From: Escherichia phage nieznany
Sequence record: NC_052659.1
Length of the DNA: 64,000 bases
Strand: one strand, 5' to 3'
The stretch's first letter is position 1. Every line of letters starts with the position of its first letter. Under the pieces are notes generated by a model. That model was not told the origin of the DNA and made no database searches. It worked only from the letters and a program-made list of their open reading frames with translations. This document shows, piece by piece, positions 16,883-49,813 of this stretch. The position numbers and the translations under genes were made by a program.

Positions 16883-17539
16883 ATGAAGAAGGGTAAACGT
16901 AAAGTTACCGTTCTCACAGAGAGGGGAGAAATCCCCTTGATTGTGGATGTTGAACGTAGATTGTGGGAAGGTGGTGTTATCAATGGAAAAAGGGTTAATA
17001 CATTCATAGATCCTTCCTATGCAGCTTGGAAAGGCATGTTTAATCGTGCATATCGTATGGAAAACATTAGACCAGGTTATAAAGATGTTACCGTGTGTGA
17101 TGCTTGGTTCACCTTTTCAAACTTTGATAACTGGTATCAAGAACATAACGTGGAAGGCTTTGTTTTAGATAAAGATCTTGTTCTTGAAGGAAATACTGTT
17201 TACTGTCCTGAATATTGTAGGTTTGTTCCTCCTTACATAAATACACTTTTAAGTTATGCTAAGAGGTATGAAAGAAAATACTTACTAGGAGCACATGTTA
17301 GGAAAGATGGTAAGATTTATGCCAAAGCTTCTGGGAGCAAAGGTAAGCATTTAGGTTACTTCGCTACAGAGGAAGAGGCACACTTCGCTTGGCTAAAGGA
17401 TAAAGCTAAGTCAATCAGGGAAACAGCGGATCGTTACAAAGAGGAAGAACATTTTTATCAAGAGGTGTACAACACTCTTGTAAACAAGGCGGATTTCTAT
17501 TGGCATCTGGCTGAAACAAAAACAGTGTTTCGAGGCTAA
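16883..17539 (+). CDS. homing endonuclease-like protein inserted between nrdA and nrdB (AP2-like domain)
   Basis: Paralog of 1590..2261; position equals that of mobE in T4 (established knowledge). Confidence 0.55.
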   Translation: MKKGKRKVTVLTERGEIPLIVDVERRLWEGGVINGKRVNTFIDPSYAAWKGMFNRAYRMENIRPGYKDVTVCDAWFTFSNFDNWYQEHNVEGFVLDKDLVLEGNTVYCPEYCRFVPPYINTLLSYAKRYERKYLLGAHVRKDGKIYAKASGSKGKHLGYFATEEEAHFAWLKDKAKSIRETADRYKEEEHFYQEVYNTLVNKADFYWHLAETKTVFRG

Positions 17540-17584: not shown

Positions 17585-18673
17585 ATGGCAGCAATTAATT
17601 TACACAATGAAGTTTACAAAACAGGAAAATATCCAGTATTTTTAGGGGAACAATTAGGGATCTTTGATTCTGTTAACGTAACTTATCCAGAAATGCACAA
17701 ACTCTACAAACTTCAAAAAGCACAAGATTGGGATGAGAATGAAGTCAATCTGGATCAGACACGTAAAGATTTCGTAGCTTGTTCTAAAAACAACTATGAT
17801 GTTATGATTAAAAACTTATCTTTCCAATGGGAAAATGATTCTCTTGCAAAATCAATCATCACTTTGTTCTCTCCATTCTTGAGTAACAATGAAGCCTGTG
17901 CTATGATGATGAAGCAGAGTGAAATGGAAGTTCTCCATGCGTTAACGTATTCTGAAATAATCCGTCAATGTACTCCAGATCCAATCGAAGTCATCAATCA
18001 GATTATGATTAATGATAAAATTTTCAATCGTATGGGTATCATTGCTGATATCATGGGTCAGTTGGAAGAAGCTGGTCATAAGTATGCTCTAGGATTGATT
18101 GAAGCTAACGATGAACTTCGACTGCTGATTCTTAAAGGGATGGTAGCCCTGATTGGGTTAGAAGGTATTCAGTTTATATCTTCCTTCTCTGCTACTTTTG
18201 CTATGGCAGAACAACAACTGTTTGTTGGAGCTTGTAAACTGATCCAGAAAATTATGCTAGATGAAATCTTGCATGTTAAGATGGATTATGCTGTAATTGA
18301 TGCATTGATGCATGACCCAATTTGGCGTAAAATTTACGAAGACAACATTGAAGAGTTGACTTTGATTCTTGACACTGTTGTTGAACAAGAGGAACAGTGG
18401 TGTGACTACCTGTTTAGTGAAGGGCGTTTTATTGTAGGTCTTAACGCCGAATTGTCTAAACAATGGGTTTATTTCAATGCTGCTCCTATTTATCGTCGAT
18501 TGAAAATGAAAGCCAAGTTTAAAGCACCTAAACATAGTCCTTTAGCTTGGATGGAAAAATGGTTGAATCCTGATTTGATTCAGTCAGCAGCCCAAGAGAT
18601 TCAGTTAACTAACTACAAATTAAATTCAGCTAACAAAGATCTCTCTGATGATGAGGAGCTTGACTTCGAATGA
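17585..18673 (+). CDS. nrdB: ribonucleoside-diphosphate reductase small subunit NrdB
   Basis: 362 aa, ferritin-like di-iron protein immediately downstream of nrdA. Confidence 0.85.
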   Translation: MAAINLHNEVYKTGKYPVFLGEQLGIFDSVNVTYPEMHKLYKLQKAQDWDENEVNLDQTRKDFVACSKNNYDVMIKNLSFQWENDSLAKSIITLFSPFLSNNEACAMMMKQSEMEVLHALTYSEIIRQCTPDPIEVINQIMINDKIFNRMGIIADIMGQLEEAGHKYALGLIEANDELRLLILKGMVALIGLEGIQFISSFSATFAMAEQQLFVGACKLIQKIMLDEILHVKMDYAVIDALMHDPIWRKIYEDNIEELTLILDTVVEQEEQWCDYLFSEGRFIVGLNAELSKQWVYFNAAPIYRRLKMKAKFKAPKHSPLAWMEKWLNPDLIQSAAQEIQLTNYKLNSANKDLSDDEELDFE

Positions 18674-35839: not shown

Positions 35840-36112
35840 ATGACTGAAGAAATCCGTGATTACTACCTTGCACATTACGTTTACTACTTTGCTAATGCTA
35901 CACAAAAAGGGGAAGGTAATCTTTACTTGGCAACAGGACATGGAACAGGTGTTAGGAAATCAAATATTGATAATGCCTTGGCTCAAGTAGCTGCGGGGCT
36001 AGAAGATAAACTTCAAACACCTGTAGTTGCAGTGATGCAAAATATAAGTTACCTAGCAAGTTGTACTGAAACCGAATTTAACGCATCTGAAACGCAATCT
36101 AACGAAGAATAA
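35840..36112 (+). CDS. hypothetical protein
   Basis: 90 aa ORF. Confidence 0.4.
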   Translation: MTEEIRDYYLAHYVYYFANATQKGEGNLYLATGHGTGVRKSNIDNALAQVAAGLEDKLQTPVVAVMQNISYLASCTETEFNASETQSNEE

Positions 36113-36115
36113 AAC

Positions 36116-36140
36116 AAAGGCACCCAAGTGGGTGCCTTTT
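36116..36140. terminator. bidirectional terminator hairpin AAAGGCACCCAAGTGGGTGCCTTTT at the convergence of plus and minus blocks
   Basis: Seen in sequence; flanked by A/T tracts on both sides. Confidence 0.6.
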
Positions 36141-36181
36141 CTATTTTAGAGCGTCTCTGTTCGATTTAGGTGGGTTCTAGC

Positions 36182-36412
36182 TTACTTGTGCAGTGCTCTC
36201 TCGTATAACTCAACAATCAATTCATCCTCTACTGTAATACGCGCCATTTGATCCGTCTTAAGAATTGTTGGTTGGTAGTGATGCATTTCACTATTAATAC
36301 TACAATCCCATTCATCATTACCTAAATACTCTCCTACATGAATCTTAACCATAAACGGAAACGGGTTATCTACCAAAAATGCCATACAACCTTCTTCGAT
36401 TTTATTTAACAC
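36182..36412 (-). CDS. hypothetical protein
   Basis: 76 aa ORF. Confidence 0.4.
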   Translation of the reverse strand: MLNKIEEGCMAFLVDNPFPFMVKIHVGEYLGNDEWDCSINSEMHHYQPTILKTDQMARITVEDELIVELYERALHK

Positions 36413-36503
36413 ACGACCTCCTATTGCTACAGATATGAAAAAACCCGCCGAAGCGGGTTCTATTGCTACGATAGAATCACTATCCTATAGTATTGTTTCT
36501 GTG

Positions 36504-36785
36504 TCAAGCCTTAGCGTAGAAAAACTTCTCATATTCAGCTTTTGTTACGATTGTGGGGCAACCTTTTGTTCCATCCTCGATAACAGGGGCTTCTACCATT
36601 CTGGTGTTGAATAAGCAATAAGTTCCACGCATATAAATACCCAGTTTTGTTTGTACAATGTGCTCTTTACTTACGCTTGAAAACTTAATCTCACCATCGG
36701 AGTCTCTTATAGCAATAAGCGCATGTTCGGGCCAATCTTTTCCTTTTGCTCCTAAAGCATTATACAGTTCTTGAACGAGTTCCAT
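36504..36785 (-). CDS. hypothetical protein
   Basis: 93 aa ORF. Confidence 0.4.
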   Translation of the reverse strand: MELVQELYNALGAKGKDWPEHALIAIRDSDGEIKFSSVSKEHIVQTKLGIYMRGTYCLFNTRMVEAPVIEDGTKGCPTIVTKAEYEKFFYAKA

Positions 36786-36797
36786 ATTACCTCCTTA

Positions 36798-36971
36798 TTA
36801 AATAACAAATTTTTCTTCTTCTGGTTTATCGTAATCTGGAGAATAAACATGTGCAGGATTAAAACCTTTAAAATTTCCGCGACCTTTACGTGGACAATTG
36901 AATGTGCGAGCTTGATGATCCCCAAAAGATTTCCCACAATGCATACATTTAAAATCAGTGCGTTTAGTCAT
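36798..36971 (-). CDS. small zinc-finger protein
   Basis: AAAGGAG then ATG; CMHCG...CPRKG. Confidence 0.4.
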   Translation of the reverse strand: MTKRTDFKCMHCGKSFGDHQARTFNCPRKGRGNFKGFNPAHVYSPDYDKPEEEKFVI

Positions 36972-37134
36972 GCCGTATCTCCTTTTAAAAGGCTGCACCT
37001 ATTGAAGATGCAGCTTTGATAGATTATTTAGATGAGTCTAAAATGTCTTTTACTTTTGCCGTGATAACGTCTTGATATTTGTTAATAAGATAGCCTACAA
37101 CTACACCTACGATAAATGAAACCATTATTTCTCC

Positions 37135-37743
37135 TTACTTAAGTGGTGAGAGAACAATCTCTCGGTTTTTTAAGAACCAAAGCATGTCATCTTGATCATA
37201 ATCTGATCCCTCTGTAGTAGAATTTTTGATAGAATCAAAAAACCAACGAGGTATACCAAAACAACTTCCAGATGACTGCACGTCTTTCTGTGACATTTTA
37301 AATGTGATTGGAAAATCACAATTATCAATCTCTCGAATATCTGCTGAAGATAAGATTGTAACTTCAACCAGTTCGTCGTTAGATGTAGTATCGTTGTCTT
37401 CCTGAATAATGTCAAATGCTTTTTGCACATCTTTTGCATCTAATGTTAAACCTGTGGCTTTCTGAAAAGCCGAAACAAAAATGAGAGCTTCTTCAGAGCA
37501 AGGGGCTTCCAGCAAATGAGCCATAATAGGTGACAAGCAAATGTTAAGATTTTTGTCATACCAACGAACAATCCACACAGGTGTTGATCCGTTTTGTTTG
37601 TCACGAGCCAAAATTGTAACGTGCTGACCCTCTTCTGGTATATGATACAAACCAGAAAAACCAGGGCCTGTAGTAGATTTTTTGACACGTGCTACATGTC
37701 CCACTTCTAAAGGATCTTTACCATCCCAAATCTTCTCTTCCAT
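37135..37743 (-). CDS. hypothetical protein
   Basis: 202 aa ORF. Confidence 0.5.
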   Translation of the reverse strand: MEEKIWDGKDPLEVGHVARVKKSTTGPGFSGLYHIPEEGQHVTILARDKQNGSTPVWIVRWYDKNLNICLSPIMAHLLEAPCSEEALIFVSAFQKATGLTLDAKDVQKAFDIIQEDNDTTSNDELVEVTILSSADIREIDNCDFPITFKMSQKDVQSSGSCFGIPRWFFDSIKNSTTEGSDYDQDDMLWFLKNREIVLSPLK

Positions 37744-37751
37744 ATAACCTC

Positions 37752-38015
37752 CTAAATAACATCTTTGAAATAGTGAATCACTTCAATATTATGATACAAA
37801 GTGCTTCGCTCTTTTGTGTACTCTGTTTTAGTAACAAACACTTTTGCAATACCGTACTTATGTGCTGGTAGGTTTGGATTAGTTTGCATAATTTCTTTCA
37901 CTACGCTTATAGTTTCGTGCTCGGATTCCCAATAAGTGAAGTAACCCTCACTATCAACGATTAAAGACTCGTTTTCAAGATCTACAAAACAGAAAAATAT
38001 TGACGGATGGCTCAT
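37752..38015 (-). CDS. hypothetical protein
   Basis: 87 aa ORF. Confidence 0.4.
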   Translation of the reverse strand: MSHPSIFFCFVDLENESLIVDSEGYFTYWESEHETISVVKEIMQTNPNLPAHKYGIAKVFVTKTEYTKERSTLYHNIEVIHYFKDVI

Positions 38016-38175
38016 TCTTTTTCTTCAACCTTCCTCAAAGCTTTTTGATCGAATATGGCGTGTTGCAATTCCCCGTTTTCATCGAACCAAGTTACTTTAC
38101 AAGATTCACCATAACTTTCTATTACTGTCATTTGTTTGTTTGCACCTTTAAGGCAAACCACATCACCTACTTGCA

Positions 38176-38625
38176 TCATGATTGAGTTCCTTTTTGTTTT
38201 TCAATAGCTGCACGAATTTCTGCTAAAGGTTCTGCTACCAAGTCTTCAACTTCTTGGATTTGTTCATTCATCACATCACGAACCATTTGAATACGCTCTT
38301 CAAGGGAAACAGCAAGTTCATCTGCATAAGCCATATTAAGAACGTGGTAGAAATTTTCTTGTGCACTTAAAGCACCAGATAACAAATAATCCTGATCTTC
38401 CTCTGGTAAAAGCATGTGTTGCTCATATTCAGCAAAAGTGTTTTTGTTAATCTCAAGCAAAGCACCCATCATAACATCATACTGATAATCTTTATGACCA
38501 GGATTGTTTAAAATAATATCTTCAAAGATATTAAGAAGAATCTTAGTAACAAAAGCATTGTTTTCGGCACCTTCCATCTGACGGATTACCGTGATTACTT
38601 CTTTTTCTTTAGCGTTTTGGCTCAT
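38176..38625 (-). CDS. hypothetical protein
   Basis: 149 aa ORF. Confidence 0.45.
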   Translation of the reverse strand: MSQNAKEKEVITVIRQMEGAENNAFVTKILLNIFEDIILNNPGHKDYQYDVMMGALLEINKNTFAEYEQHMLLPEEDQDYLLSGALSAQENFYHVLNMAYADELAVSLEERIQMVRDVMNEQIQEVEDLVAEPLAEIRAAIEKQKGTQS

Positions 38626-38815
38626 AGTGTTTCTCCTCTGATTCTATTTCGATATAGCCTGTGGTTTTGCACGGGTTACACTCGTAAATTTGACCTACAT
38701 CCGCCATAACATATCCTGCACCACCACAATAGGGGCAAGGCATAGGAGGACAAGGTATGGACGTAGTGATTGTTACGACATTATCAATTTCCAACATTTT
38801 CGCCATTATTACCAT
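38609..38815 (-). CDS. small zinc-ribbon protein
   Basis: CPPMPCPYCGG...CNPCK. Confidence 0.35.
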   Translation of the reverse strand: MVIMAKMLEIDNVVTITTSIPCPPMPCPYCGGAGYVMADVGQIYECNPCKTTGYIEIESEEKHYEPKR

Positions 38816-39057
38816 TCCGCTATTAACGTCAAACCAAGTGCATCGTTAAAACGCTCAACATTTGAGTATAGGTATGGAGGGGTTATTTGCTCTAAAATTT
38901 GTGCTGCTTCCACTTGGTGTTCTATGTTTTGAGAAGTTCGGGCATAAACTAAGACACCCATTTTATTCAAAATAAAAACAGAATCAGACCCATCCAGCTT
39001 ATCAACGGCTGCATACATTTTAGTCATATTTTCTCCTGGATTACCATTCAGCAACAA
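38809..39057 (-). CDS. hypothetical protein
   Basis: 82 aa ORF. Confidence 0.4.
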   Translation of the reverse strand: MLLNGNPGENMTKMYAAVDKLDGSDSVFILNKMGVLVYARTSQNIEHQVEAAQILEQITPPYLYSNVERFNDALGLTLIAEW

Positions 39058-39256
39058 GACTAGGATTCATAGCAAAAGCTTTGAAAGTTGTTATGTCATG
39101 ACTAACATTAAAACTAACACCTTTTACTTTCTCTAATATTTGAACTTTCGTCTCTCCGTCCCACGGTAGGATGATAACACCATCTTCTGTGATCAACCAC
39201 CAATGGTTCTCTCCATCTCGTGAATCTTTTGCTTTGTATAGAAAATTGGAACTCAT
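39041..39256 (-). CDS. hypothetical protein
   Basis: 71 aa ORF. Confidence 0.4.
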   Translation of the reverse strand: MSSNFLYKAKDSRDGENHWWLITEDGVIILPWDGETKVQILEKVKGVSFNVSHDITTFKAFAMNPSLVAEW

Positions 39257-39616
39257 TCTTCCTCCTGTTCGGTATTATTCACCTGTGAGACACAATGTAA
39301 CACAAGTTTTGTGAGTTTGTCAAGGATCTAATTACATTCTACAGAAGAAGAGGGTTAATAACTATAGGAATAGTCTTACTATAGGTGCAATACTAGTTAA
39401 GAGTTAGATTGATAGGTAAGACTTATCTTAAACAGATAATTGATAGGTGAGTCACCATTGACTTTTTCAAAAAAGTATGGTACCCTAAACATATGTTTAC
39501 GAGCGATAGCGAGTAGTAGATTTCTATATAATAATGTTTCATGTTACTCACGATAGTGAGGTATGAAACGTAAGTGAAGGTAGATAAACTATGATCATCT
39601 ATCTACCATCTATTAA

Positions 39617-39826
39617 TCAATATAGATCTAATGTTAGACTAACAGTTATCCAACAAACAATAGCAGTCCATATAACAAGTAATGATCTACAAACTACATC
39701 CCATTCGAATACATTGTATGTTAACCATTCTCCCATCACAACACAAGAACCTAACCAACATCCGACAATAACTATAATCCAATAAAAGAATCCTACAGTA
39801 GAGTATACAGCAAAAGCTTTTAACAT
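39617..39826 (-). CDS. small membrane protein
   Basis: GGAGGAAAG then ATG; hydrophobic with Trp-rich TM segments. Confidence 0.4.
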   Translation of the reverse strand: MLKAFAVYSTVGFFYWIIVIVGCWLGSCVVMGEWLTYNVFEWDVVCRSLLVIWTAIVCWITVSLTLDLY

Positions 39827-40053
39827 CTTTCCTCCAGAAGTTGTTCAACAGTTTGACGAGTATGATTGTCCCAGTAAACCTTAGTGAAGTCAAGAGTTCC
39901 TTGTTCGTTTCTCTTAGTTTCGAAGAAGTATCCGCCTTCTCTTTCTACTCTGTCTCTAATGTGCTCTATGAGGTGCTTTTTACAAGATGCTGATAAACAA
40001 TAGTCATACTCCCCACGAAGTAACGCTATAGCTGCAAGTCTGTTATCACCAAC

Positions 40054-40239
40054 TTAAGATATTGTCCAAGAAAGCATACTACCTTCTATACCTAAAGGTG
40101 TTTGTCGAATGGAATATCCACCATGCCGACTGATAGAAATTATGGCAAGTGGTTCTCCTGTTAGAGATCTTCCTAATGCACCTTCTGTTGGACTTCCTTC
40201 AACAATACGTTTGAAAAAAGCTTTGATCTTACCTAACAT
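40054..40239 (-). CDS. hypothetical protein (followed in-frame, after one TAA, by a 77-codon start-less open frame 39823..40053)
   Basis: AGGGGGA then ATG 40239. Confidence 0.4.
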   Translation of the reverse strand: MLGKIKAFFKRIVEGSPTEGALGRSLTGEPLAIISISRHGGYSIRQTPLGIEGSMLSWTIS

Positions 40240-40256
40240 AAGTCCCCCTTAAAAAC

Positions 40257-40391
40257 TTACTTGTTTAAAGTATCTCTTACTTGTTCTGCTTGACGTTTAG
40301 TAATAAAAGTCCCAACCGAAACGTTAAACTCATTGACTACAGAGAACGATCCATCACGGTTCTCACGAATATTAAACAATTTCTTACTCAT
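40257..40391 (-). CDS. small hypothetical protein (44 aa)
   Basis: GGAGGAGG then ATG; manual translation MSKKLFNIREN... Confidence 0.35.
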   Translation of the reverse strand: MSKKLFNIRENRDGSFSVVNEFNVSVGTFITKRQAEQVRDTLNK

Positions 40392-40587
40392 TTCTACCTC
40401 CTCCGATGCTTTGTGCCGTACCATCCCAAGCCATTAGAATATTTGCCAATAGTTCACGAGGCTCTTTAAACCAAACTTCCATTTCATCAAGAATCTCGTC
40501 CGTGTCGTAAGTATAACCTGGAACACCAAGTTCACATTTCTTAAGATAGCTTTCTAACCAGCGGTGATAATTCTTAACCCCATTCAT
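40384..40587 (-). CDS. hypothetical protein
   Basis: 67 aa ORF. Confidence 0.4.
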   Translation of the reverse strand: MNGVKNYHRWLESYLKKCELGVPGYTYDTDEILDEMEVWFKEPRELLANILMAWDGTAQSIGGGRNE

Positions 40588-40912
40588 ACTGTGCTACCTT
40601 TTCTTTTACCCAATCTACACGATCTTTATCATAATGTTGAGTGCCAAGGAAAAGACCATTGTGGAAACTTTCCTCACCGAAAGGATAAATCGGATCTAAA
40701 CCATCTTCTTCAAATAACATTTTTAGTCTCTGTGATGTAGATTTCTTAGTTTCTGAGTTGTAGCTTGTGGTTATAAGCCAATCTTCCAAACAACGACACA
40801 AACCTTGACGAGAATCCCAAGGAAAAACACAATCTCCGACAGGAGCTTGTTCAGCCCATTTCAACCAGCCTTTAAAAAAGTTATACAGTATGTAGTCTTC
40901 AGTGTAATACAT
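40574..40912 (-). CDS. hypothetical protein, member of 3-copy paralog family (GLC..PF..RVxWVKxRV)
   Basis: AAGGAGGAG then ATG 40912; motif RVDWVKEKV. Confidence 0.45.
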   Translation of the reverse strand: MYYTEDYILYNFFKGWLKWAEQAPVGDCVFPWDSRQGLCRCLEDWLITTSYNSETKKSTSQRLKMLFEEDGLDPIYPFGEESFHNGLFLGTQHYDKDRVDWVKEKVAQYEWG

Positions 40913-40963
40913 TATCTCCTCCTTTACGTATACAATAACACCCCGAAGAACGGGGTGCAACTG

Positions 40964-41575
40964 TTATTTAATCTGTTTGAAAATTTCGTTTGGAACGGTA
41001 CCGTTTAAAATACCTTCTACGATCTCCTGTGCAGATGTGTAAGAGAGTCCAAAAGAAGCTACGCCTAAAATTGCCTCCTTCAAAGGATCTGGCAGGGGTT
41101 CAAAATTACCTGCAACAAAGCCACCTGCACAAGCAGCGCCTTCATCATCCCAGAAAACAACTGCTACATCGTTACCATGCGAAGTTGTGCGATGTGCAAT
41201 AACTTCAACTTCGGTGCCTTCTTTAGGAACAGAATAAGAACTGTCCCAAGAATATCTTTCCAAATCAGGAACAAAGATAACCTTTTCACCTACTGGCGGC
41301 AGTTCACAACGATAATACCAAGAATTTTTTTCGTTCATTGTTTTATTTTCCTCCACGTCTTCAAAAGTAACGATCCAATCGTAGCCGTAAGAAAACGGAT
41401 ATTTTAGATCTAAAGAATAAGTTTGACCTAGATCGTCCTCAACAAGAACCATCCTGTCAAAGTTTGCGATGTTAGGATTATGTTTAATGATAGGGTATGT
41501 TTCCCCTACAGTAAATTGTCCCAAATGGTAAAGTTCATCTCTCCAAGTAATTTGGATATGAGTGCATTGAATCAT
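40964..41575 (-). CDS. hypothetical protein
   Basis: 203 aa ORF. Confidence 0.5.
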   Translation of the reverse strand: MIQCTHIQITWRDELYHLGQFTVGETYPIIKHNPNIANFDRMVLVEDDLGQTYSLDLKYPFSYGYDWIVTFEDVEENKTMNEKNSWYYRCELPPVGEKVIFVPDLERYSWDSSYSVPKEGTEVEVIAHRTTSHGNDVAVVFWDDEGAACAGGFVAGNFEPLPDPLKEAILGVASFGLSYTSAQEIVEGILNGTVPNEIFKQIK

Positions 41576-41579
41576 AAAA

Positions 41580-41852
41580 TCACCCCCAAGAAATATTTAT
41601 ATATCTTACAATGTTTGCACTGTCTAAAGCCATGTTTGCACCACACCCACGCTCGCGCCAGTAACTAACAATACCTTCACAGATACTTTCTTGTATCTTC
41701 TTATCACTTGGCATTTCTAGTATAAGACTTGGGTTGTGGATGTTTATGTTATAATATCCTTCCTCTGCGGCTTGAGCTACCAATTTACTTACTTTTTCAA
41801 AGTACGGGGAATTAGTGGCATCTGCCATTGTTTTTAAGGTTTGTCTATCCAT
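41580..41852 (-). CDS. hypothetical protein
   Basis: 90 aa ORF. Confidence 0.4.
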   Translation of the reverse strand: MDRQTLKTMADATNSPYFEKVSKLVAQAAEEGYYNINIHNPSLILEMPSDKKIQESICEGIVSYWRERGCGANMALDSANIVRYINISWG

Positions 41853-42217
41853 TATTCTGCCTCATCATAGAAGAAATCCAACTCTTGTTCCAGTTGTTTA
41901 ACTCGATCCTTAACCCACTGTACACGTTTTTCATTAAACATGCAACGTTTTTCCTTACACTCTTGCTCAAAAGATTTTGCTGTGTTAAATGGGAAAGTTG
42001 TATCTAAGCCAGCGTTTTCAAAACTGGCTAATTGCATACCATAAACAGAATATGCTAAAGAATGATCGGCTCGAAATTCATCACTTATATACATACGTAG
42101 ACCTCGGCATAAGCCAACATCAGCGTAACCACTTTCTCGTGGAAAGAGACGGAGGTGTTCTAACCAATTATTATAGAAATCTAAAAGAATCCTTTTACAC
42201 TTCAAATCAATTGTCAT
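41852..42217 (-). CDS. hypothetical protein, paralog family member (RVQWVKDRV)
   Basis: AAGGAG then ATG 42217. Confidence 0.45.
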   Translation of the reverse strand: MTIDLKCKRILLDFYNNWLEHLRLFPRESGYADVGLCRGLRMYISDEFRADHSLAYSVYGMQLASFENAGLDTTFPFNTAKSFEQECKEKRCMFNEKRVQWVKDRVKQLEQELDFFYDEAE

Positions 42218-42617
42218 AAAAAGTTTCTCCTTCGTCGAACAAGTTGGCAAGATTGTTCACGGCAATCTGCGTGGAAAGAAGACAACTGTTTGCAGACACA
42301 TAAGCACGAGCTATTTTGTAAACATAGGCTTTCGTATTACAATTGTCCAGGATCGGAAGACTTTCGTCGATAGCATCTATAACACTAAACATCACATCTA
42401 AAACTTTAATGGTGAGTGTTGTATTTGTATCTTCGTAACCTTTTTCAATCCGACCTGAATAGAAAGCATAGTCCTCAACAGTTCGTCGTTTAAACTGCCG
42501 CATAAAATCGGAACCATCTGTAGCAGAATTGAACAAATTTTCAAAAAATACGTCCCATCCGGCAAAAAGGGCTGACAGCATGATTAAGTGATCTACAGAT
42601 TCATTTTCTTGTTTCAT
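42207..42617 (-). CDS. hypothetical protein
   Basis: 136 aa ORF. Confidence 0.45.
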   Translation of the reverse strand: MKQENESVDHLIMLSALFAGWDVFFENLFNSATDGSDFMRQFKRRTVEDYAFYSGRIEKGYEDTNTTLTIKVLDVMFSVIDAIDESLPILDNCNTKAYVYKIARAYVSANSCLLSTQIAVNNLANLFDEGETFYDN

Positions 42618-42625
42618 ATCCTCTC

Positions 42626-43303
42626 CTATTTAATGTTAAGTCTGGCACACAAACGAGAAACAGTTTTAGCATCCCATTTACCACCACGTGCTGTTGCTAT
42701 TTTCTTACTATTGAATTTTTCAGCAATAGTTTTGTAAGGTGTATTTAAATCTCTAAGGATCTCCAAGCGTTCACGGAATGTCTCTGCAAAAGCGTCTGCT
42801 TTAACAGAGTTGTATTCCATTTTTCCTTTTCTACGTGCAGCGGCAGTTTTAGGATTAGCACTACCTAATAAAACACCTTTACTTTTTGCTACAGCAAGAC
42901 CCTTTTTAATGCGATCAGCAATGCCTCTAACTTCTTGTTCAGCCAGAACAGATAGAAGTTGTATAACCATTTTATCTGCGTCTGGCATGATGGCTATCTT
43001 AACATCGATCATTTCTAGAAGAGTTGCTACGGAGGCGTTGTTACGACCCAAGCGGTCAACTTTAGCTACCAATAAAGTTGCTCCGGTAGCTTTACACATT
43101 TCAACCGCTTTAACCAGTTCCTTACGTTGCTTCCAATCGCCCTTACCCGAATAGTATTCAGAAAATTGACCAATAACTTCAGCATCAGGCACAGAGTCTA
43201 AGAAGTAACGGATATCGTTCTCTTGGCTCTCCATACCATATTGTGCCTCACCTTTTTTCTGTTTAGAAAGACGACTGTAAACAACAAACTTTTTCATAAC
43301 CAC
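42626..43303 (-). CDS. serine recombinase (resolvase/invertase family) with C-terminal HTH
   Basis: VYSRLSKQKK (catalytic Ser region), VAKVDRLGRN, C-terminal HTH-like KTIAEKFNSKKIATARGG; own TTGACA-17-TAAAGT promoter. Confidence 0.75.
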   Translation of the reverse strand: MVMKKFVVYSRLSKQKKGEAQYGMESQENDIRYFLDSVPDAEVIGQFSEYYSGKGDWKQRKELVKAVEMCKATGATLLVAKVDRLGRNNASVATLLEMIDVKIAIMPDADKMVIQLLSVLAEQEVRGIADRIKKGLAVAKSKGVLLGSANPKTAAARRKGKMEYNSVKADAFAETFRERLEILRDLNTPYKTIAEKFNSKKIATARGGKWDAKTVSRLCARLNIK

Positions 43304-43367
43304 TCCTAAACCATTGCTGTATTCTCACTTTACAAAACGAATAAACACTTGTCAAGGTATTTATTAT

Positions 43368-43580
43368 TTACAGCCATTCTACTCTTAAGCAGTATTCCTC
43401 GACATGTTGTTTACGCTTGTTTTTATCTATGTAAGTGTATTCAACAAATGTTCCAAGATAGTCCTTGTCTACATTGTGTGGGCTATTGATTGGACATTTA
43501 GTACGACAAACCCGTTGCCACTGACGAAGAATTACGGCTTTGTTTTTAGGATCAAAGGGATGAGGGTAATGTACCTTCAT
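43368..43580 (-). CDS. hypothetical protein
   Basis: 70 aa ORF. Confidence 0.4.
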   Translation of the reverse strand: MKVHYPHPFDPKNKAVILRQWQRVCRTKCPINSPHNVDKDYLGTFVEYTYIDKNKRKQHVEEYCLRVEWL

Positions 43581-43904
43581 TCACGCCTCCTGTTTTAGTC
43601 GAAAAATATTTTGAATAACTAGAGATGTATAGTTATCACTTAGTCCCATAAGTTCTACTTCCAAGTTTCGAATATCTTCTACTGTAGGAGGATATGTTGG
43701 TAAAAATGCTTGAGCATTACCAGATCCAACCTCATTGCTGTAAGCAGTTGTAAAATTGTAAGATACAAAACATGAAACACCTTTTTGTCGGTACCCGATT
43801 AATCGACGAATACACCAGATAAGAGCCAAACCTATGAGAACACCTCCTAAACCAGCTAACAAGAAGGATAAGTTCATAATAGCTTCGTTAACAACTGCTT
43901 GCAT
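43581..43904 (-). CDS. membrane protein (one N-terminal TM helix)
   Basis: LSFLLAGLGGVLIGLALIWCI hydrophobic segment. Confidence 0.4.
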   Translation of the reverse strand: MQAVVNEAIMNLSFLLAGLGGVLIGLALIWCIRRLIGYRQKGVSCFVSYNFTTAYSNEVGSGNAQAFLPTYPPTVEDIRNLEVELMGLSDNYTSLVIQNIFRLKQEA

Positions 43905-43914
43905 TCTTTTCTCC

Positions 43915-44214
43915 TTAGTTATGTAAACCCAAATGTGCTACAACTTCTCTACGATAAGATAACTGCATAGCAATTTTATAGCCAGGATGAAAACCATTTA
44001 CATCAATGTCATCAAACCAAACCTCAAACGAACCGTGCTTAAGAGTCATTAAGTTGATATACCATTCGATAATATAATGATCGTCAGCAATACCTTCGAT
44101 GTAAAATTCTCGGCAACAGTGAGATAGGTCTTCACTTGTTTCACGTTTCCAGTCCTTGATAGCACCTTTCTCTTTGGCTTCATTCAAAATTTTGATCAGG
44201 TCTTCAACTTGCAT
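43915..44214 (-). CDS. hypothetical protein
   Basis: 99 aa ORF. Confidence 0.4.
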   Translation of the reverse strand: MQVEDLIKILNEAKEKGAIKDWKRETSEDLSHCCREFYIEGIADDHYIIEWYINLMTLKHGSFEVWFDDIDVNGFHPGYKIAMQLSYRREVVAHLGLHN

Positions 44215-44267
44215 ATCTATCTCCTTTGTGGTTAATCTTTATATTTTAAATATTGTACCGTCTTCTA

Positions 44268-44681
44268 TCAAATAGCCTCTTTCTCTAAAACAACTCTTTG
44301 GATCACAACATCTTCAATGTTTGCCAAACAATGACCCAAAGTCAATCCTGCCTTGAAAGGTGCTTGTAGTTTGGACTCGGCTTCTACGCGAATAGAATGT
44401 TCCGCTCCACACATCGTGTAATCTACACGGTAAACGTTTAAACCTAAGAACATAGATTCTTCTTCCTCACAACAAGGATTGAGTTCAGCCCATTCCCAAG
44501 CATCTCCTTCTAAAGCAAATGGAGTGTTGTAATTGAAGAAAGTGCAGCGCGGATACTCCCCGTTGAAAGAATCTTTCAACAAGATATATTTCTTACCGTT
44601 TGCGTGGAAGAGTTCTCCTTTGATAACCTTGCCTACAAGGATATCACTGTTAGTAGAACGGGTGCAGATAAACTTTTTCAT
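44268..44681 (-). CDS. hypothetical protein
   Basis: 137 aa ORF. Confidence 0.45.
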   Translation of the reverse strand: MKKFICTRSTNSDILVGKVIKGELFHANGKKYILLKDSFNGEYPRCTFFNYNTPFALEGDAWEWAELNPCCEEEESMFLGLNVYRVDYTMCGAEHSIRVEAESKLQAPFKAGLTLGHCLANIEDVVIQRVVLEKEAI

Positions 44682-44743
44682 GATTTTCTCCTCTTTGTTT
44701 TGATGAGATGATTATGACAAAGACAGATCCTTCTGTCAACGAT

Positions 44744-44965
44744 TTATTTCCACTCGCCTTGATGTTCTTTGATCTCGTAAGAGTAGTATTCGAACATGCT
44801 CATACAAACCACACCTGCCATTTCTAAACAAAGAGGTTTGTCATTATAGAAGGCACTTACTGCTCTTCCTGCTTTATGTGCTGCTTCTTCGGAATCACAA
44901 CCGCAAACGTTATGCACCCAAGGATCAGGGCCATCATATTTAAGACGTACAATCCACATGATCAT
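44744..44965 (-). CDS. hypothetical protein
   Basis: ATGA overlap with upstream gene. Confidence 0.35.
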   Translation of the reverse strand: MIMWIVRLKYDGPDPWVHNVCGCDSEEAAHKAGRAVSAFYNDKPLCLEMAGVVCMSMFEYYSYEIKEHQGEWK

Positions 44966-45189
44966 TCTTCCATCTCGAACCATTCAGGGAACACTTTGTG
45001 GAAGACACGTGTTGTTTCTAAGAGAAATTCCAACTCTTTTTCCAAATCTGCGTTCCAACCGTTTATTTTAACACGGATTGCCAATGCACTTGCACGGCGA
45101 CTCAATTCTTGACAGATTGGATCACGCAGAACTATTGAGTCATAAAACTGACAAACAGCCTCAAGTTCATACCAGTTATAATCCGACAT
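44962..45189 (-). CDS. hypothetical protein
   Basis: 75 aa ORF. Confidence 0.4.
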   Translation of the reverse strand: MSDYNWYELEAVCQFYDSIVLRDPICQELSRRASALAIRVKINGWNADLEKELEFLLETTRVFHKVFPEWFEMEE

Positions 45190-45515
45190 TATTCATCCTC
45201 CTCTGCAATACGATCTCTTACCCAATTAATCCTGTCCACGTTCAGGTGACATACCTTTGCATCTGATTCTAAGACATATGCATCGTAGTTCTCATTGAAA
45301 GGGAGTTCTTGACTCAACCCTTTGTGGTAAAACTGTGCGTGCATTTCATCTGACAAGGTTGTTATAATGGGGTTGTAATTACCTCTGTGCACATAATCGA
45401 ACAAGTTGGCACACAAACCACAATCCCGCCGAAAAGGTTTACCATCAGGAGCACCAACATCAATCCATGCTAGATAAATTTTATAAAACTCCATCAAATC
45501 TTTACTTGTTTTCAT
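45189..45515 (-). CDS. hypothetical protein, paralog family member (RINWVRDRI)
   Basis: 108 aa ORF. Confidence 0.45.
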   Translation of the reverse strand: MKTSKDLMEFYKIYLAWIDVGAPDGKPFRRDCGLCANLFDYVHRGNYNPIITTLSDEMHAQFYHKGLSQELPFNENYDAYVLESDAKVCHLNVDRINWVRDRIAEEDE

Positions 45516-45859
45516 TATTTTACCTCGATCACGTTGATAAATACATCTTCACGACAATCTTTATCGTCCCCGTAGATTTGACCTAATCGTACACATGCGT
45601 TAAAGGCGGATTTTGCGGGAATTTGATATTTACGGACAGGACCATTGTCTTTTGTGTAGGAAACCTCAAAGAGACGAATAGTGTCATCCTCAATTACATG
45701 AAACCGACCACAATCCATAATCAAAGAGATACACAGGGTATCCCCTTCTTCGTCTGTAATATAAAACAAACCTGGATTATCTATAACTTGGGAAGCTAGA
45801 TACTGCTTACCCTCTTTAAGGAACTCGACAGAAGACTCTGCACATAAAAGTTTAATCAT
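45515..45859 (-). CDS. hypothetical protein
   Basis: 114 aa ORF. Confidence 0.45.
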   Translation of the reverse strand: MIKLLCAESSVEFLKEGKQYLASQVIDNPGLFYITDEEGDTLCISLIMDCGRFHVIEDDTIRLFEVSYTKDNGPVRKYQIPAKSAFNACVRLGQIYGDDKDCREDVFINVIEVK

Positions 45860-45920
45860 TTTTCTCTCCTTATCTGTGTTGATAATGTATGTATACCATA
45901 CATAAAAGAAATGTCAAAGT

Positions 45921-46121
45921 TTATCGACACAGATAGTTGTAACGATCCGCTTTATCCTCTGCTTCAGCAAAGTCAGCAATCAAGGAAGTTTTGAGTTCTT
46001 CCAACTCTTTCACCCAAGAGTCGTAATCGTTCTGTGTTTCTCCAATAGTTTGGAGAAAACAATCGTCGTAGCCAATAGACATGGCTAACTCGATAATACG
46101 TTCCAGTTTTTCTTCCATCAC
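45921..46121 (-). CDS. hypothetical protein
   Basis: 66 aa ORF. Confidence 0.35.
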   Translation of the reverse strand: MMEEKLERIIELAMSIGYDDCFLQTIGETQNDYDSWVKELEELKTSLIADFAEAEDKADRYNYLCR

Positions 46122-46480
46122 TTCTCTCCTTCTACAGACTTCTGTTTAACATAAAAGTAAGCACCACGAGCAAGATACAAATCATGTTCAATATCGCTCA
46201 CAGGAAAACCATCTGGATTTTTAAAACCGTCTTCTACAGCCAAAATGAGAGATCGTAAACTGATAGCTAACAACTCCATTTGATCTTGTAGTTTTCTATT
46301 TTCTGCATAAAGGTTTTTGCATTTTTGTTCTGCATTTTTCCATTGTTCTAATGCATGATCATAGTTTCGCATAAGGATAGCTTTTTCTTGTTCACGTTTA
46401 AAAGTTTCTTCACAAATGAAACCTGTGCCTAAACCAGTTTCTTCATCTTTGACAAACACTTCAACAAAATCTTTAGACAT
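46118..46480 (-). CDS. hypothetical protein (coiled-coil-like)
   Basis: AGGAG then ATG 46480. Confidence 0.4.
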   Translation of the reverse strand: MSKDFVEVFVKDEETGLGTGFICEETFKREQEKAILMRNYDHALEQWKNAEQKCKNLYAENRKLQDQMELLAISLRSLILAVEDGFKNPDGFPVSDIEHDLYLARGAYFYVKQKSVEGEK

Positions 46481-46481
46481 A

Positions 46482-46745
46482 TTATCTCCTATTTGCTTTT
46501 GGATACTCCCAACCTTCTGGGAGATCTTCTTTACACATCCACTCAAAAGGCCAGCGACAATAACTATGCCACTTTCCATCGAGATATAAGCAATCTTCAT
46601 CCACTGGTCCACAAGGATTGATAACTACAACACACCCTTTTGCTCGCCAATATTGAACTATTTCGGGGTAAAAACAAGAAACGTCGGTCCACTCCCAGAT
46701 ACGTTCATCATTCAAACGATATGCTGCTGGCAATGTTTCTTCCAT
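46482..46745 (-). CDS. hypothetical protein
   Basis: 87 aa ORF. Confidence 0.4.
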   Translation of the reverse strand: MEETLPAAYRLNDERIWEWTDVSCFYPEIVQYWRAKGCVVVINPCGPVDEDCLYLDGKWHSYCRWPFEWMCKEDLPEGWEYPKANRR

Positions 46746-46749
46746 ATTA

Positions 46750-47196
46750 TTAAACCTCTGTCAAAGAGAAACGCCAATCCTTACTACTACCTACACCAAG
46801 GAAGATATAGTCTCCGGTACTAACGGAATATCCCCCAGCGGGAATCCAATCAGGAATCTCTGGCTTATGGCTGTAGCCATAACGCTCGCCACTCGAATCT
46901 GTTGCAATATAATTAACAAATTCAGGAACCTCTAAAGTTTCACCTTGATACTCTACACGCTTGAAGCCATCTTCCACTTCTTTCTCACCTTCTACCAGAG
47001 AAGCAAGAAGTTTGATGTGAGGGCAAGTGAAATCTTGTCCTGGATAACGTGAACGGATATCAGTTAACAATGCGATCACAGCATCAGATAACTCTTTATA
47101 ATCCTCATATCTTACAAATGTGCCTTCTGTCGGATCATCAGGACACAAACGCCAAACATCATTGCAGTTTACAGCATAATGTCGCACTTTAGTCAT
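46750..47196 (-). CDS. hypothetical protein
   Basis: 148 aa ORF. Confidence 0.45.
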   Translation of the reverse strand: MTKVRHYAVNCNDVWRLCPDDPTEGTFVRYEDYKELSDAVIALLTDIRSRYPGQDFTCPHIKLLASLVEGEKEVEDGFKRVEYQGETLEVPEFVNYIATDSSGERYGYSHKPEIPDWIPAGGYSVSTGDYIFLGVGSSKDWRFSLTEV

Positions 47197-47206
47197 AAAT
47201 ACCCCC

Positions 47207-47605
47207 TTATCGTTGCGTACAATCAGCTTCTAGAGTAAGAACATTCGTTATTGTTTTATCATTTTTTAGAAATGCAAACCAAGCTAAAGTGTCCCGATAT
47301 TCTGTGCGTAGCATAACCACTTCAGTAGTGCCAATAAATTGTTGTGAACCGTACATAGCACTACCATCTTTACTTTTTTCTCCTGTGTATTGCAGAATGC
47401 CACTCATCAAAGCACCACCTGAATTTTTAAGGATAAAGGAGTTATCTTTATTAATGACAACAGAAGCCATTTTCTTAGGACCAGAAATCACTTCACCTTT
47501 CAGATTTTTAACAACCACATCTGACACACACTCATAAACTTGAGACGCATTTGCTGTTCCAAGTGATGCAATGAGTAACAAGAAACCTACGATGATCTTT
47601 TTCAT
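47207..47605 (-). CDS. secreted/periplasmic protein (signal peptide)
   Basis: MKKIIVGFLLLIASLGTANA signal. Confidence 0.45.
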   Translation of the reverse strand: MKKIIVGFLLLIASLGTANASQVYECVSDVVVKNLKGEVISGPKKMASVVINKDNSFILKNSGGALMSGILQYTGEKSKDGSAMYGSQQFIGTTEVVMLRTEYRDTLAWFAFLKNDKTITNVLTLEADCTQR

Positions 47606-47701
47606 ATAAACTCTCCTCTTTGTTTACCCGATGCGCCCCCTGTTGGGCAGAAAGGGTTGTACGCAAAATTTTTAGCTCCAATCGTCGGGTGTCCCGACTC
47701 C

Positions 47702-47908
47702 TTACGCTTTTAATGTTTTAACAGAATGACAAGCTTTGCAAACAATAACCGGAACAAGTTCATCTCCATTATCCGCATAAATCACTGTTTTCTTCATTCT
47801 GCCACCGCATGAACAATACTCTGTATGATCCGCAGGAATATTAAATATTCCGTAATCACTTTCATACTGTTTCTTACATATGGACACTGCTTTCGTAAAA
47901 CAAGACAT
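47702..47908 (-). CDS. small zinc-ribbon protein
   Basis: CSCGG...CKACH. Confidence 0.35.
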   Translation of the reverse strand: MSCFTKAVSICKKQYESDYGIFNIPADHTEYCSCGGRMKKTVIYADNGDELVPVIVCKACHSVKTLKA

Positions 47909-47910
47909 GC

Positions 47911-48132
47911 CTACTCCGCAAGAACCTTCACTTCGTCAGAGAAGAATACGTAATCACAACCTTCCCAAACATCTTCTTCAAACCACTCCCATCCCTCGAC
48001 TTTGGACATTTCTTCTATCGTAACAAAGAATGTTGTCATATCCTCACTAACAAGATGTGCTTCAACAACAAAAGGAATCTGAACATTCTCAAAACCAACA
48101 TAACCCAATACATCACAAACTCTAATTTTCAT
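47911..48132 (-). CDS. hypothetical protein
   Basis: 73 aa ORF. Confidence 0.4.
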   Translation of the reverse strand: MKIRVCDVLGYVGFENVQIPFVVEAHLVSEDMTTFFVTIEEMSKVEGWEWFEEDVWEGCDYVFFSDEVKVLAE

Positions 48133-49780
48133 ATTATGCTCCTTTGTAGATTATGTTGGTGCGTTCACACTCTGCCACCAGCAAGCCAAGCTTTGTAAAA
48201 CTTCATTAGACGTAAGCTACTCAACGGAACATTTTTACTCTCTTGCATGATAATCTCCTCTCATCGTTAGCCATCTTTCATGGCAATCATCAATCACCAA
48301 CATCATACGATCAATCTTAGGGAATTACAATCGAATTATCATAGGGGATTCCTATCAATTATCCCCTATATACCGATTATTTTTGACACCCCACTCTTGT
48401 ATAAAAAGTAACCCAAAATATCTACGGGGAGAGATTATTTCGGGACACCCTGTTTCATGGCAATCATGGCAAGAATATCTAATAGAATCAATATCATATG
48501 GCAAAAATCATGGCGCATACGTAAGAAGTGCTTAACGCGAATTTTCGGGCCGTCAGGTCCACGCAGCGACAATTCCCAAATATCATGCGAATGAGAATAA
48601 TTATCATTCGTATTCAATGACTTATGCAAAGCTCATGCCAACGTAGCGACAAGGTGGGCCACTTGATTATAAATCACACAAACACTTATTTATCAATGGT
48701 TTGGCAACCTCATCATATGACGGAACAATGTCAACTAATCCCGCTCATGACAAGCAGACTATTATTTATATGAGAATGATTATTATTTAAACGTTTATTA
48801 ATATAAAAACTAGAATAAATCAAGATTATTCTGATTTTATTTACGTTTAAGAGAAGGTGCTCAACATATCGCGTAGCGATAGTATTCGCCCCCCAAAAGA
48901 TTAGCCTTTATTTTCTTGTATGTTTATACACTATGTGCACACTATGCAACCTGTCGCTATTCGCTCATGTTGCTACGTGCAATTATTCATCTTGCTAATG
49001 ATGATCACACTGAACGATAGTGATAACTCTTGTAATTACCACAATGATTATTGTTATTGCGCTAATGTTATGATCTTGGTAATTACATATAATGCTAATA
49101 ATAAGCCAGCGCAATAAGTGTAAGCGTCATTACGCTTGCAATTATTGCAAGCTACGCAGTAACAAGAAATAACCGTCACCGATGGTTATGATTGTTGGGG
49201 TGTAGTTGGCTTATTATTAGCTCGCTATGTGTCCGGCATAGCGTGCTAATGATGACTCTGTGAATGATTAGTTTTGTAATGATTTCATTCAGGCACTATT
49301 TTGCTAATAGTTATTATTTTAATGGTTTCGTTTGTTATTGTTCGTTAGTTGGTTGTTTTGTCATGTTATCGTTATTTTGCTTAGTATTCATCATGGTTTG
49401 ATTGTTTGTCGTTATCAATCATCTTGCTATTATTCCTTTGATTATGATTAGTTTGCTTATTGTTTTATGTTGTTTGTTGGTTAGTTGTTGCGAACTATTA
49501 TCAACATTATAGTTATGCACTTATATTGCATAGATAAACATGGATAGATGATAATGGTTATCATTGCACCAGAAAGGAGGTAAAAGGGTGTTTTTGATGG
49601 TTTGTTGTTGGTTGTTGATCGATTTTAACCGCTTTAAATGGCTCTCTAACAGCCTGTAACCCTGGGATGTATGGTTATTCGTTTGCTGGTTGATTAGCTC
49701 GATACCACGATTTATTCAGTTTTGTTCTGTGTCGGTTTTTCATAGGCGAAAGCTATCAACATTGTTCGGGCAAAAAGAAA
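48133..49780. other. 1.65 kb noncoding, repeat-rich, strand-compositionally skewed region (G/T-rich tract 49300-49520; repeated GCTAAT(G/A)(A/T)T and CGTAGCGAC motifs)
   Basis: No convincing ORF; low-complexity GT-skew; at least five GCTAATGATGA-like copies (about 48991, 49058, 49092, 49243, 49303) and CGTAGCGAC-like copies in both orientations. Confidence 0.5.
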
Positions 49781-49797
49781 GGGCGCTTGGTGCGCCC
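49781..49797 (-). terminator. terminator hairpin GGGCGCACCAAGCGCCC followed by U-tract on minus strand (same element repeated at 52132)
   Basis: Identical 17-nt hairpin with AAAGAAA/TTTCTTT flanks at 49781 and 52132. Confidence 0.55.
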
Positions 49798-49813
49798 CTT
49801 GTTTTGTTGTCGA

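Follow-up and report, generated by a model that had tools for sequence, protein, structure and literature searches.

The 64,000-nucleotide stretch of Escherichia phage nieznany analysed here (NC_052659.1, referred to as a whole as the window) carries three small open reading frames (ORFs), copies A, B and C, which are certainly true, diverged paralogs of a single gene family, as judged by comparison of their sequences. Each copy is individually constrained, and we tentatively read the three proteins as small modules that would bind host factors early in infection. The three genes are as follows.

40574..40912, minus strand: copy A, an ORF of 112 amino acids (aa) from its ATG, a divergent paralog
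41852..42217, minus strand: copy B, an ORF of 121 aa from its ATG, a divergent paralog
45189..45515, minus strand: copy C, an ORF of 108 aa from its ATG, the canonical copy

All three lie inside an ∼12 kb block of small genes on the minus strand (36.1-48.1 kb). Their ATG starts agree with the GenBank annotation of relatives, and copy A has a strong ribosome-binding site (AAGGAGGAG) 5 nt 5′ of its ATG (40912). The region between 40000 and 46000 is 95-99% identical to ∼63 Escherichia phage genomes of the genus Phapecoctavirus (phAPEC8-type myoviruses of ∼150 kb, subfamily Stephanstirmvirinae), with phage vB_Ec-G1 the closest at 98.9%.

The initial annotation had noticed an ordered set of motifs shared by the three ORFs and had taken it as a sign that one small early gene was duplicated and diverged. 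The ORFs are indeed present on the minus strand and contain every one of these motifs (GLCRC, GLCRG and GLCAN; PFGEE, FPFNTA and LPFNEN; RVDWVKEKV, RVQWVKDRV and RINWVRDRI), and the similarity extends far beyond them. Pairwise BLASTP among A, B and C gives E = 6e-9, 7e-10 and 3e-10 over ∼105-109 aligned residues at 26-30% identity (26-29% for C against A or B), which is far above chance, and an all-against-all search of the 186 ORFs in the window returned cross-matches only among A, B and C and in one unrelated pair. Additionally, each copy independently matches the profile hidden Markov model (HMM) phrog_2510 (A, E = 4.7e-27; B, E = 2.1e-26; C, E = 1.6e-32), the matches spanning positions ∼4-113 of a 219-position profile that covers a tandem pair. 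Together the pairwise comparisons, the all-against-all result and the profile matches make the paralogy certain and uphold duplication and divergence of one small gene family. Duplication of a larger cassette was considered and rejected, since no paralogy links the genes that neighbour A, B and C.

The same annotation had expected diversifying selection, a claim that is not borne out at the level of whole genes. Ratios of nonsynonymous to synonymous substitution (dN/dS; Nei-Gojobori, pooled over 9-11 related loci) are 0.07 for A, 0.06 for B and 0.34 for C, compared with 0.00-0.28 for 12 neighbouring genes (0.02 for the recombinase gene between B and C). Copy C is thus the least constrained of the 15 genes, yet its ratio is clearly below 1, and the replacements among its orthologues are found at surface positions and in three loops, 20-32, 44-50 and 86-88 (copy C numbering, used throughout), and spare every motif residue. 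Judged by these ratios, A, B and C are each under purifying selection and each functional.

Conservation across the genus points in the same direction. Orthologues of A, B and C at ≥80% identity occur in ∼61-63 of the ∼69 Phapecoctavirus records, with A found at ≥80% identity and B at ≥95% identity in 63 records each. A and B are ≥95% identical in ∼60 genomes, and the next relatives fall abruptly to <40%. On this sequence comparison the three copies are near-universal in the genus, old and individually constrained.

The number of copies, by comparison, varies widely. Scanning 12 related genomes or loci with an HMM yielded at least 13 paralog groups, the groups being <60% identical to each other. 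Three intact copies are present in this window, four in tuntematon, AV125 and DE16 (6 kb section), at least five in EF1-1, six in the complete genome of KKP 3954, at least six in an IMG/VR contig and at least seven in PsgM04F. Three sites in the window record how this number changes.

44744-44983, minus strand: variable slot, here a 79-aa ORF with no Pfam match, replaced by an extra copy, G, in tuntematon, AV125 and DE16
48176..48186, no strand assigned: deletion junction at which 4,633 bp are missing relative to KKP 3954 and the flanking alignments share 11 bp
48165..48248, minus strand: remnant of a fourth copy (copy F of KKP 3954), MQESKNVPLSSLRLMKFYKAWLAG followed by GRV and a stop, a deletion scar

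Copy G is 106 aa long and 51% identical to C. By blastn, 36000-48186 of the window corresponds to KKP 3954 positions 132358-144548 and 48176-48850 to positions 149182-149856; the deleted segment (KKP 144549-149181) holds copies D and E and most of F. The translation of the remnant is identical to KKP copy F over its first 24 codons, after which come three unrelated codons and the stop. The family had been described as having three copies, which holds for the intact genes and has to be corrected by this remnant; in the 64 kb we detected nothing else of the family beyond A, B, C and the remnant. The readable scar indicates that the phage descends from an ancestor with more copies and that D-F are dispensable. 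As far as can be read from these genomes, diversity in the family arises from gain, loss and replacement of copies and not from rapid substitution.

The family turns out to be already catalogued and uncharacterised. PHROG (phrog_2510, with phrog_6418, phrog_27059 and phrog_2176) and pVOG (VOG7392) describe the same family as A, B and C, with no difference between them, and neither catalogue gives a function. All 71 diverse members tested match both phrog_2510 and phrog_6418, and the VOG7392 tag in GenBank sits on tuntematon_258, _261 and _271, the orthologues of A (98.2%), B (99.2%) and C (91.7%). Pfam and NCBIfam scans of A, B and C returned only sub-threshold chance matches, Pfam scans of the 71 diverse members one by one gave no recurrent family, even weakly, and the PADLOC-DB defence-protein HMMs did not match A, B or C at E up to 1. 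We found no relative of the family among PDB sequences, where it has no solved structure, and no paper naming phrog_2510 or VOG7392.

An exhaustive profile search with the three-paralog alignment, counted as representatives of clusters at 50% identity, recovered 1,546 representatives with E no higher than 1e-3, of which 496 have E no higher than 1e-10. Members are mostly single-domain proteins of 100-115 aa. Many natural two-domain members of ∼200-240 aa exist, as do one with three domains and a few embedded in longer proteins, one of them a multi-module phage protein with repeated AAPAVQAE linkers; the fusion partners in P0054, P0106, P0080 and the other longer members contain no annotated domain. 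A tblastn search with copy C placed the family at 640 sites in 259 annotated phage genomes, among them Phapecoctavirus, rV5-like phages and Justusliebigvirus, N4-like podoviruses of Achromobacter, Erwinia and Klebsiella, T1-like siphoviruses, Rhizobium phages, the T7-like Burkholderia phage JG068, Delftia phiW-14 and the jumbo phage BcepSaruman, and every one of these homologs is annotated "hypothetical". Small phages have one copy and large myoviruses several, and the contigs that hold family representatives are phage-sized. Word-indexed protein searches gave 6, 23 and 1 proteins, IMG/VR yielded two loci only, and the family alignments hold no stretch conserved enough for degenerate-pattern scans of bacterial genomes. 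A DNA-level search of 5,426 complete E. coli genomes found no member of the family.

Family HMM bit scores are 128 for C, 92 for A and 86 for B, and C is also the copy closest to other phage groups, at 38-42% identity to homologs from T1-like, N4-like and Rhizobium phages. As C is nearer to these homologs than it is to A or B, either the split between the copies is old or there has been transfer between phage groups. One member, of 159 aa, is carried by a 92.8 kb E. coli P1-like phage-plasmid (locus L019, NZ_CP148392.1 49153-49632) that also encodes Phd/Doc, dut and DUF2829. It lies close to genes for a metallophosphoesterase and a protein of the PAPS-reductase (phosphoadenosine phosphosulfate reductase) family, and the T1-like phage Sf12 has a metallophosphatase a few genes from its own copy, an association that is weak. 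Three records named as Campylobacter, Acinetobacter and Pseudomonas phages (MG065650.1, OP562383.1 and OR584014.1) are 82-98% identical to E. coli Phapecoctavirus genomes in this region, which makes their stated hosts doubtful.

Structure prediction indicates that the family consists of small (∼105 aa), soluble, mildly acidic, all-alpha proteins. The AlphaFold2 model of copy C, built with a 23-sequence alignment, has a mean predicted local distance difference test score (pLDDT) of 91 and a predicted template modelling score (pTM) of 0.84, with five helices at residues 5-19, 34-42, 50-64, 77-85 and 93-107. Foldseek against the PDB found no fold match (best E = 2.2, template modelling (TM) score ∼0.2), and the only structural relatives, in BFVD, are uncharacterised phage proteins. 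The isoelectric points (pI) of A, B and C are 4.7-5.3, with net charges of -4 to -7, and the family median pI is 5.2. For the natural tandem protein P0008 the AlphaFold model is poorer (pLDDT 74, pTM 0.55), with low-confidence packing between the domains; the helper sequences all aligned to its first domain.

Conservation was counted over 191 domains. P72 is present in all 191 and F73 and R95 in 190 of the 191 each, while C35 is found in 188 of 189, G33 in 183 of 189 and W98 in 182 of 189. N or D occupies position 92 in 97% of the domains and H90 is present in 79%, compared with 64-76% for the polar residues N37, E57, Q61 and E83. In the model, Cys35 is placed at the N-terminus of helix 2 and H90 and N92 in the loop before helix 5. 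Among the polar residues only E57 and Q61 form a co-varying pair (phi 0.56), and a comparison framed as intact versus dead active sites revealed no all-or-none pattern. Copy C has all family consensus residues. Copy A keeps C35, P72-F73, H90, R95 and W98 and departs from the usual N, E, Q and E with C37, R57, L61 and G83; copy B keeps C35, P72-F73, R95 and W98 and has G37, M57, S61 and M90, leaving it with no His90.

The genes had also been called early, and here the block does look early and early expression is likely, given sigma70-like sites within it and the positions of homologs in other phages. In the T7-like phage JG068 the homolog (gp5; PMC3765740) belongs to the early operon, with the annotated host promoters on one side of it and the first terminator on the other. 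That of the N4-like phage Axy11 is in the annotated early region, ahead of the RNA polymerase (RNAP) II genes and 2.8-3.2 kb from the left end, and that of the T1-like phage Sf12 follows helicase and VRR-NUC genes. Intergenic DNA makes up 10% of the block, and of the 7 best sigma70-like matches on its coding strand 5 are located there (binomial P ∼2e-4), four of these 24-38 nt upstream of a start codon. This enrichment is supportive and not conclusive, as AT-rich spacers inflate promoter matches. The elements closest to the three copies are listed here.

43327..43355, minus strand: candidate sigma70-like promoter (TTGACA/17 nt/TAAAGT) from a consensus scan, 24 nt upstream of the recombinase gene
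44711..44739, minus strand: the best sigma70-like promoter match of the block (TTGACA/17 nt/TG-CATAAT, 11/12), 30 nt before the 137-aa gene that follows C
40938..40958, minus strand: G+C-rich hairpin immediately before copy A, GCACCCCG-TTCT-TCGGGGTG, whose T tract is weak

A, B and C are probably transcribed early in infection by the host RNA polymerase. The promoter at 43327..43355 probably drives the recombinase gene, a 136-aa gene, B, a 90-aa gene and a 203-aa gene, and its transcription probably reaches A if the hairpin is read through. The annotation of phage Schickermooser lists this hairpin as a putative terminator, and it may act as an attenuator or help to stabilise RNA; no Rfam family was matched in 36-58.5 kb. 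The recombinase is itself an observation of note in a virulent phage, being a serine recombinase encoded between B and C (42626-43303, minus strand; Pfam Resolvase, E = 5e-18). The gene order of resolvase, 137-aa gene and B-type copy is retained in more distant relatives, the recombinase gene, which is very strongly constrained (dN/dS 0.02), is truncated in phage Schickermooser, and several GenBank records call it 'methionine ABC transporter ATP-binding protein'.

From this context an anti-defence or host-interaction role for A, B and C is plausible. The reading that we prefer, tentatively, is that the three proteins are early, soluble binding modules that act stoichiometrically, each engaging a different host factor in takeover or counter-defence; that they bind host proteins at all, and which ones, is a guess. 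In such a model a rigid five-helix scaffold would be fixed by the near-invariant G33-L34-C35, P72-F73 and R95-x-x-W98-V99, and specificity would come from the variable loops 20-32, 44-50 and 86-88 together with a polar stripe on helices 2-4 (N37, E57, Q61, E83) that is replaced in A and B. Large myoviruses would hold an array of such modules, altered by gain, loss or swap of whole genes, and this phage would still carry the three copies found throughout the genus, three others having gone with the single 4.6 kb deletion. The accessory, modular behaviour of the family (at least 13 paralog groups, 3 to at least 7 copies, the G slot and the loss of D, E and F) supports this idea, as does the pattern in A and B, where semi-conserved polar residues are altered and scaffold residues retained. 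The restriction of replacements in C to loops and the surface, and the member built into a multi-module protein, also speak for it.

Small early phage proteins that block host factors are well represented by T7 Ocr, T4 AsiA and the Acb2-type nucleotide sponges. A, B and C resemble them in small size, solubility, acidity, all-alpha architecture and location among probable early genes of virulent phages. The family does not look like a DNA mimic of the Ocr or ArdA kind, since it has neither extreme negative charge (pI 4.7-5.3, charge -4 to -7) nor any fold match in the PDB. The copy-number variation likewise recalls the gene accordions of poxviruses and the multigene families of large DNA viruses, which are expandable arrays of host-interaction paralogs. 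As in those systems, near-identical genomes carry different numbers of copies (3 here, 6 in KKP 3954, at least 7 in PsgM04F), which change through deletion and cassette replacement. A, B and C are nonetheless no recent tandem amplifications of one gene: they diverged long ago (26-30% identity), and purifying selection acts on each.

Several points weigh against host-binding modules. No known anti-defence or host-takeover protein resembled the family in the sequence, profile and structure searches. The orthologues, as judged by dN/dS, show purifying selection and no signature of an arms race. The promoter evidence is consensus matching in AT-rich spacers, and a literature search for a transcriptome of this phage group found none. 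Finally, the conservation of Cys35, Arg95, N/D92 and His90 exceeds what a pure scaffold usually needs, and a shared ligand, metal or catalytic site fits that conservation at least as well.

This last point is the core of the foremost alternative, namely that the family comprises small thiol-dependent enzymes, or proteins with a ligand- or metal-binding pocket, of a new all-alpha fold. Here Cys35 would serve as nucleophile or ligand, with the rest of the site made up of Arg95 and of His90 and Asn/Asp92, an H-x-N motif ahead of helix 5. Paralogs without the histidine, B among them, would be derivatives that have specialised or are not catalytic. We consider this unlikely, though it accounts for a good deal. 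The near-invariance of C35 and R95, the 97% conservation of N/D92 and the 79% of His90 are what such a site predicts, as are the modelled positions of Cys35 at a helix start and of H90 and N92 in the loop before helix 5; C35, H90, N92 and R95 are untouched by the substitutions among C orthologues, and a universal site would explain the strong purifying selection and the presence of the family in phages of many Proteobacteria. Set against this, ∼21% of the domains have no His90, the strongly constrained copy B among them, the polar residues are not kept or lost together as a unit (E57 and Q61 alone co-vary), the fold matches no known hydrolase or transferase, and 100 residues is small for an enzyme. 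In a comparison with the Cys-His-Asn/Asp triad of papain-like and NlpC/P60-like cysteine hydrolases, Cys35 (99%) and N/D92 (97%) are nearly always present, His90 is present in 79% and B has no His, and the alpha+beta papain-like fold is not found in the family. There is a small chance that the predicted fold with its C35/H90/N-D92/R95 site is an unrecognised thiol-dependent enzyme or a small-molecule or metal module that virulent phages of Proteobacteria deploy early. If true, the paralog arrays of large myoviruses would amount to a set of these modules whose specificities had been reshaped, for instance against different host immune or stress pathways.

A role within the phage's own programme, in which the proteins would be regulators or adaptors of transcription or replication, or chaperones, with different phage partners or as hetero-oligomers, is more doubtful still. 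The family spans T7-like, N4-like, T1-like and rV5-like phages, whose transcription and replication machineries are entirely different, so that a shared phage-encoded partner is unlikely. The acidic pI argues against DNA binding, three copies are naturally dispensable, and the model of the tandem protein (pTM 0.55) does not pack its domains confidently against each other. That the motif similarity reflects chance or composition, or that the ORFs are not genuine genes, has a negligible probability given pairwise E-values of 1e-9 to 1e-10, HMM E-values of 1e-26 to 1e-32, dN/dS far below 1, a confident predicted fold and 1,546 homologous clusters; chance similarity of A, B and C is excluded.

Two known phage proteins were considered as possible identities of A, B and C and rejected. 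The anti-TIR protein Atd1 is encoded by Phapecoctavirus phages (PMC11724313), the same genus, and is a MazG-like (p)ppGpp pyrophosphatase (bioRxiv 10.1101/2022.06.09.495361), whereas the family has no MazG match in Pfam and no significant structural match in the PDB. The "early host takeover" proteins Eht1 and Eht2 are membrane proteins of a temperate Pseudomonas phage.

As a set, A, B and C are an ordinary feature of large virulent phages, members of a catalogued and uncharacterised multi-copy family of small genes. The family is a fair subject for experiment, both for its size and wide spread (1,546 clusters at 50% identity in many unrelated phage groups) and because it combines a confident predicted fold that has no solved relative with a near-invariant cysteine and arginine, a site that may mark a new activity. 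Near-isogenic natural phages with 3, 4, 6 or more copies are ready comparators, and a target or activity, once found, would annotate thousands of "hypothetical" phage genes together.

Elsewhere in the window several further features were seen. An AT-rich segment of ∼1.7 kb (48133-49813) has no coding-strand ORF of ≥50 aa, and the GC skew breaks in it. Several inverted repeats are present there, as are four copies of a degenerate 30-nt direct repeat. The KKP 3954 record begins and ends inside this segment, and 48542-48850 of the window matches both KKP 149548-149856 and approximately KKP 1-309. These features suggest a terminal repeat or genome end, or a regulatory or origin region heading the early block. 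At the other end of the block, a perfect hairpin with a 10-bp stem (36116-36139), a predicted bidirectional terminator, sits where the plus-strand genes (1-36 kb) and the minus-strand genes converge and the GC skew reverses. A 68-aa ORF (38609-38815, minus strand) has two CxxC motifs, one of them of the CxxCGGxG type, and only a weak, sub-threshold match to DUF5351; it is called 'DNA ligase' in G1, EF1-1 and PsgM04F, which looks like a propagated misannotation. A second paralog pair without a Pfam match (1590-2261 and 16883-17539, both plus strand) is 30% identical over 196 aa (E = 9e-25). The copy at 16883-17539 lies between the genes for ribonucleotide reductase alpha (14628-16871) and beta (17585-18673), where KKP 3954 has only a 44 bp gap, and for that reason may be a mobile, homing-type insertion.

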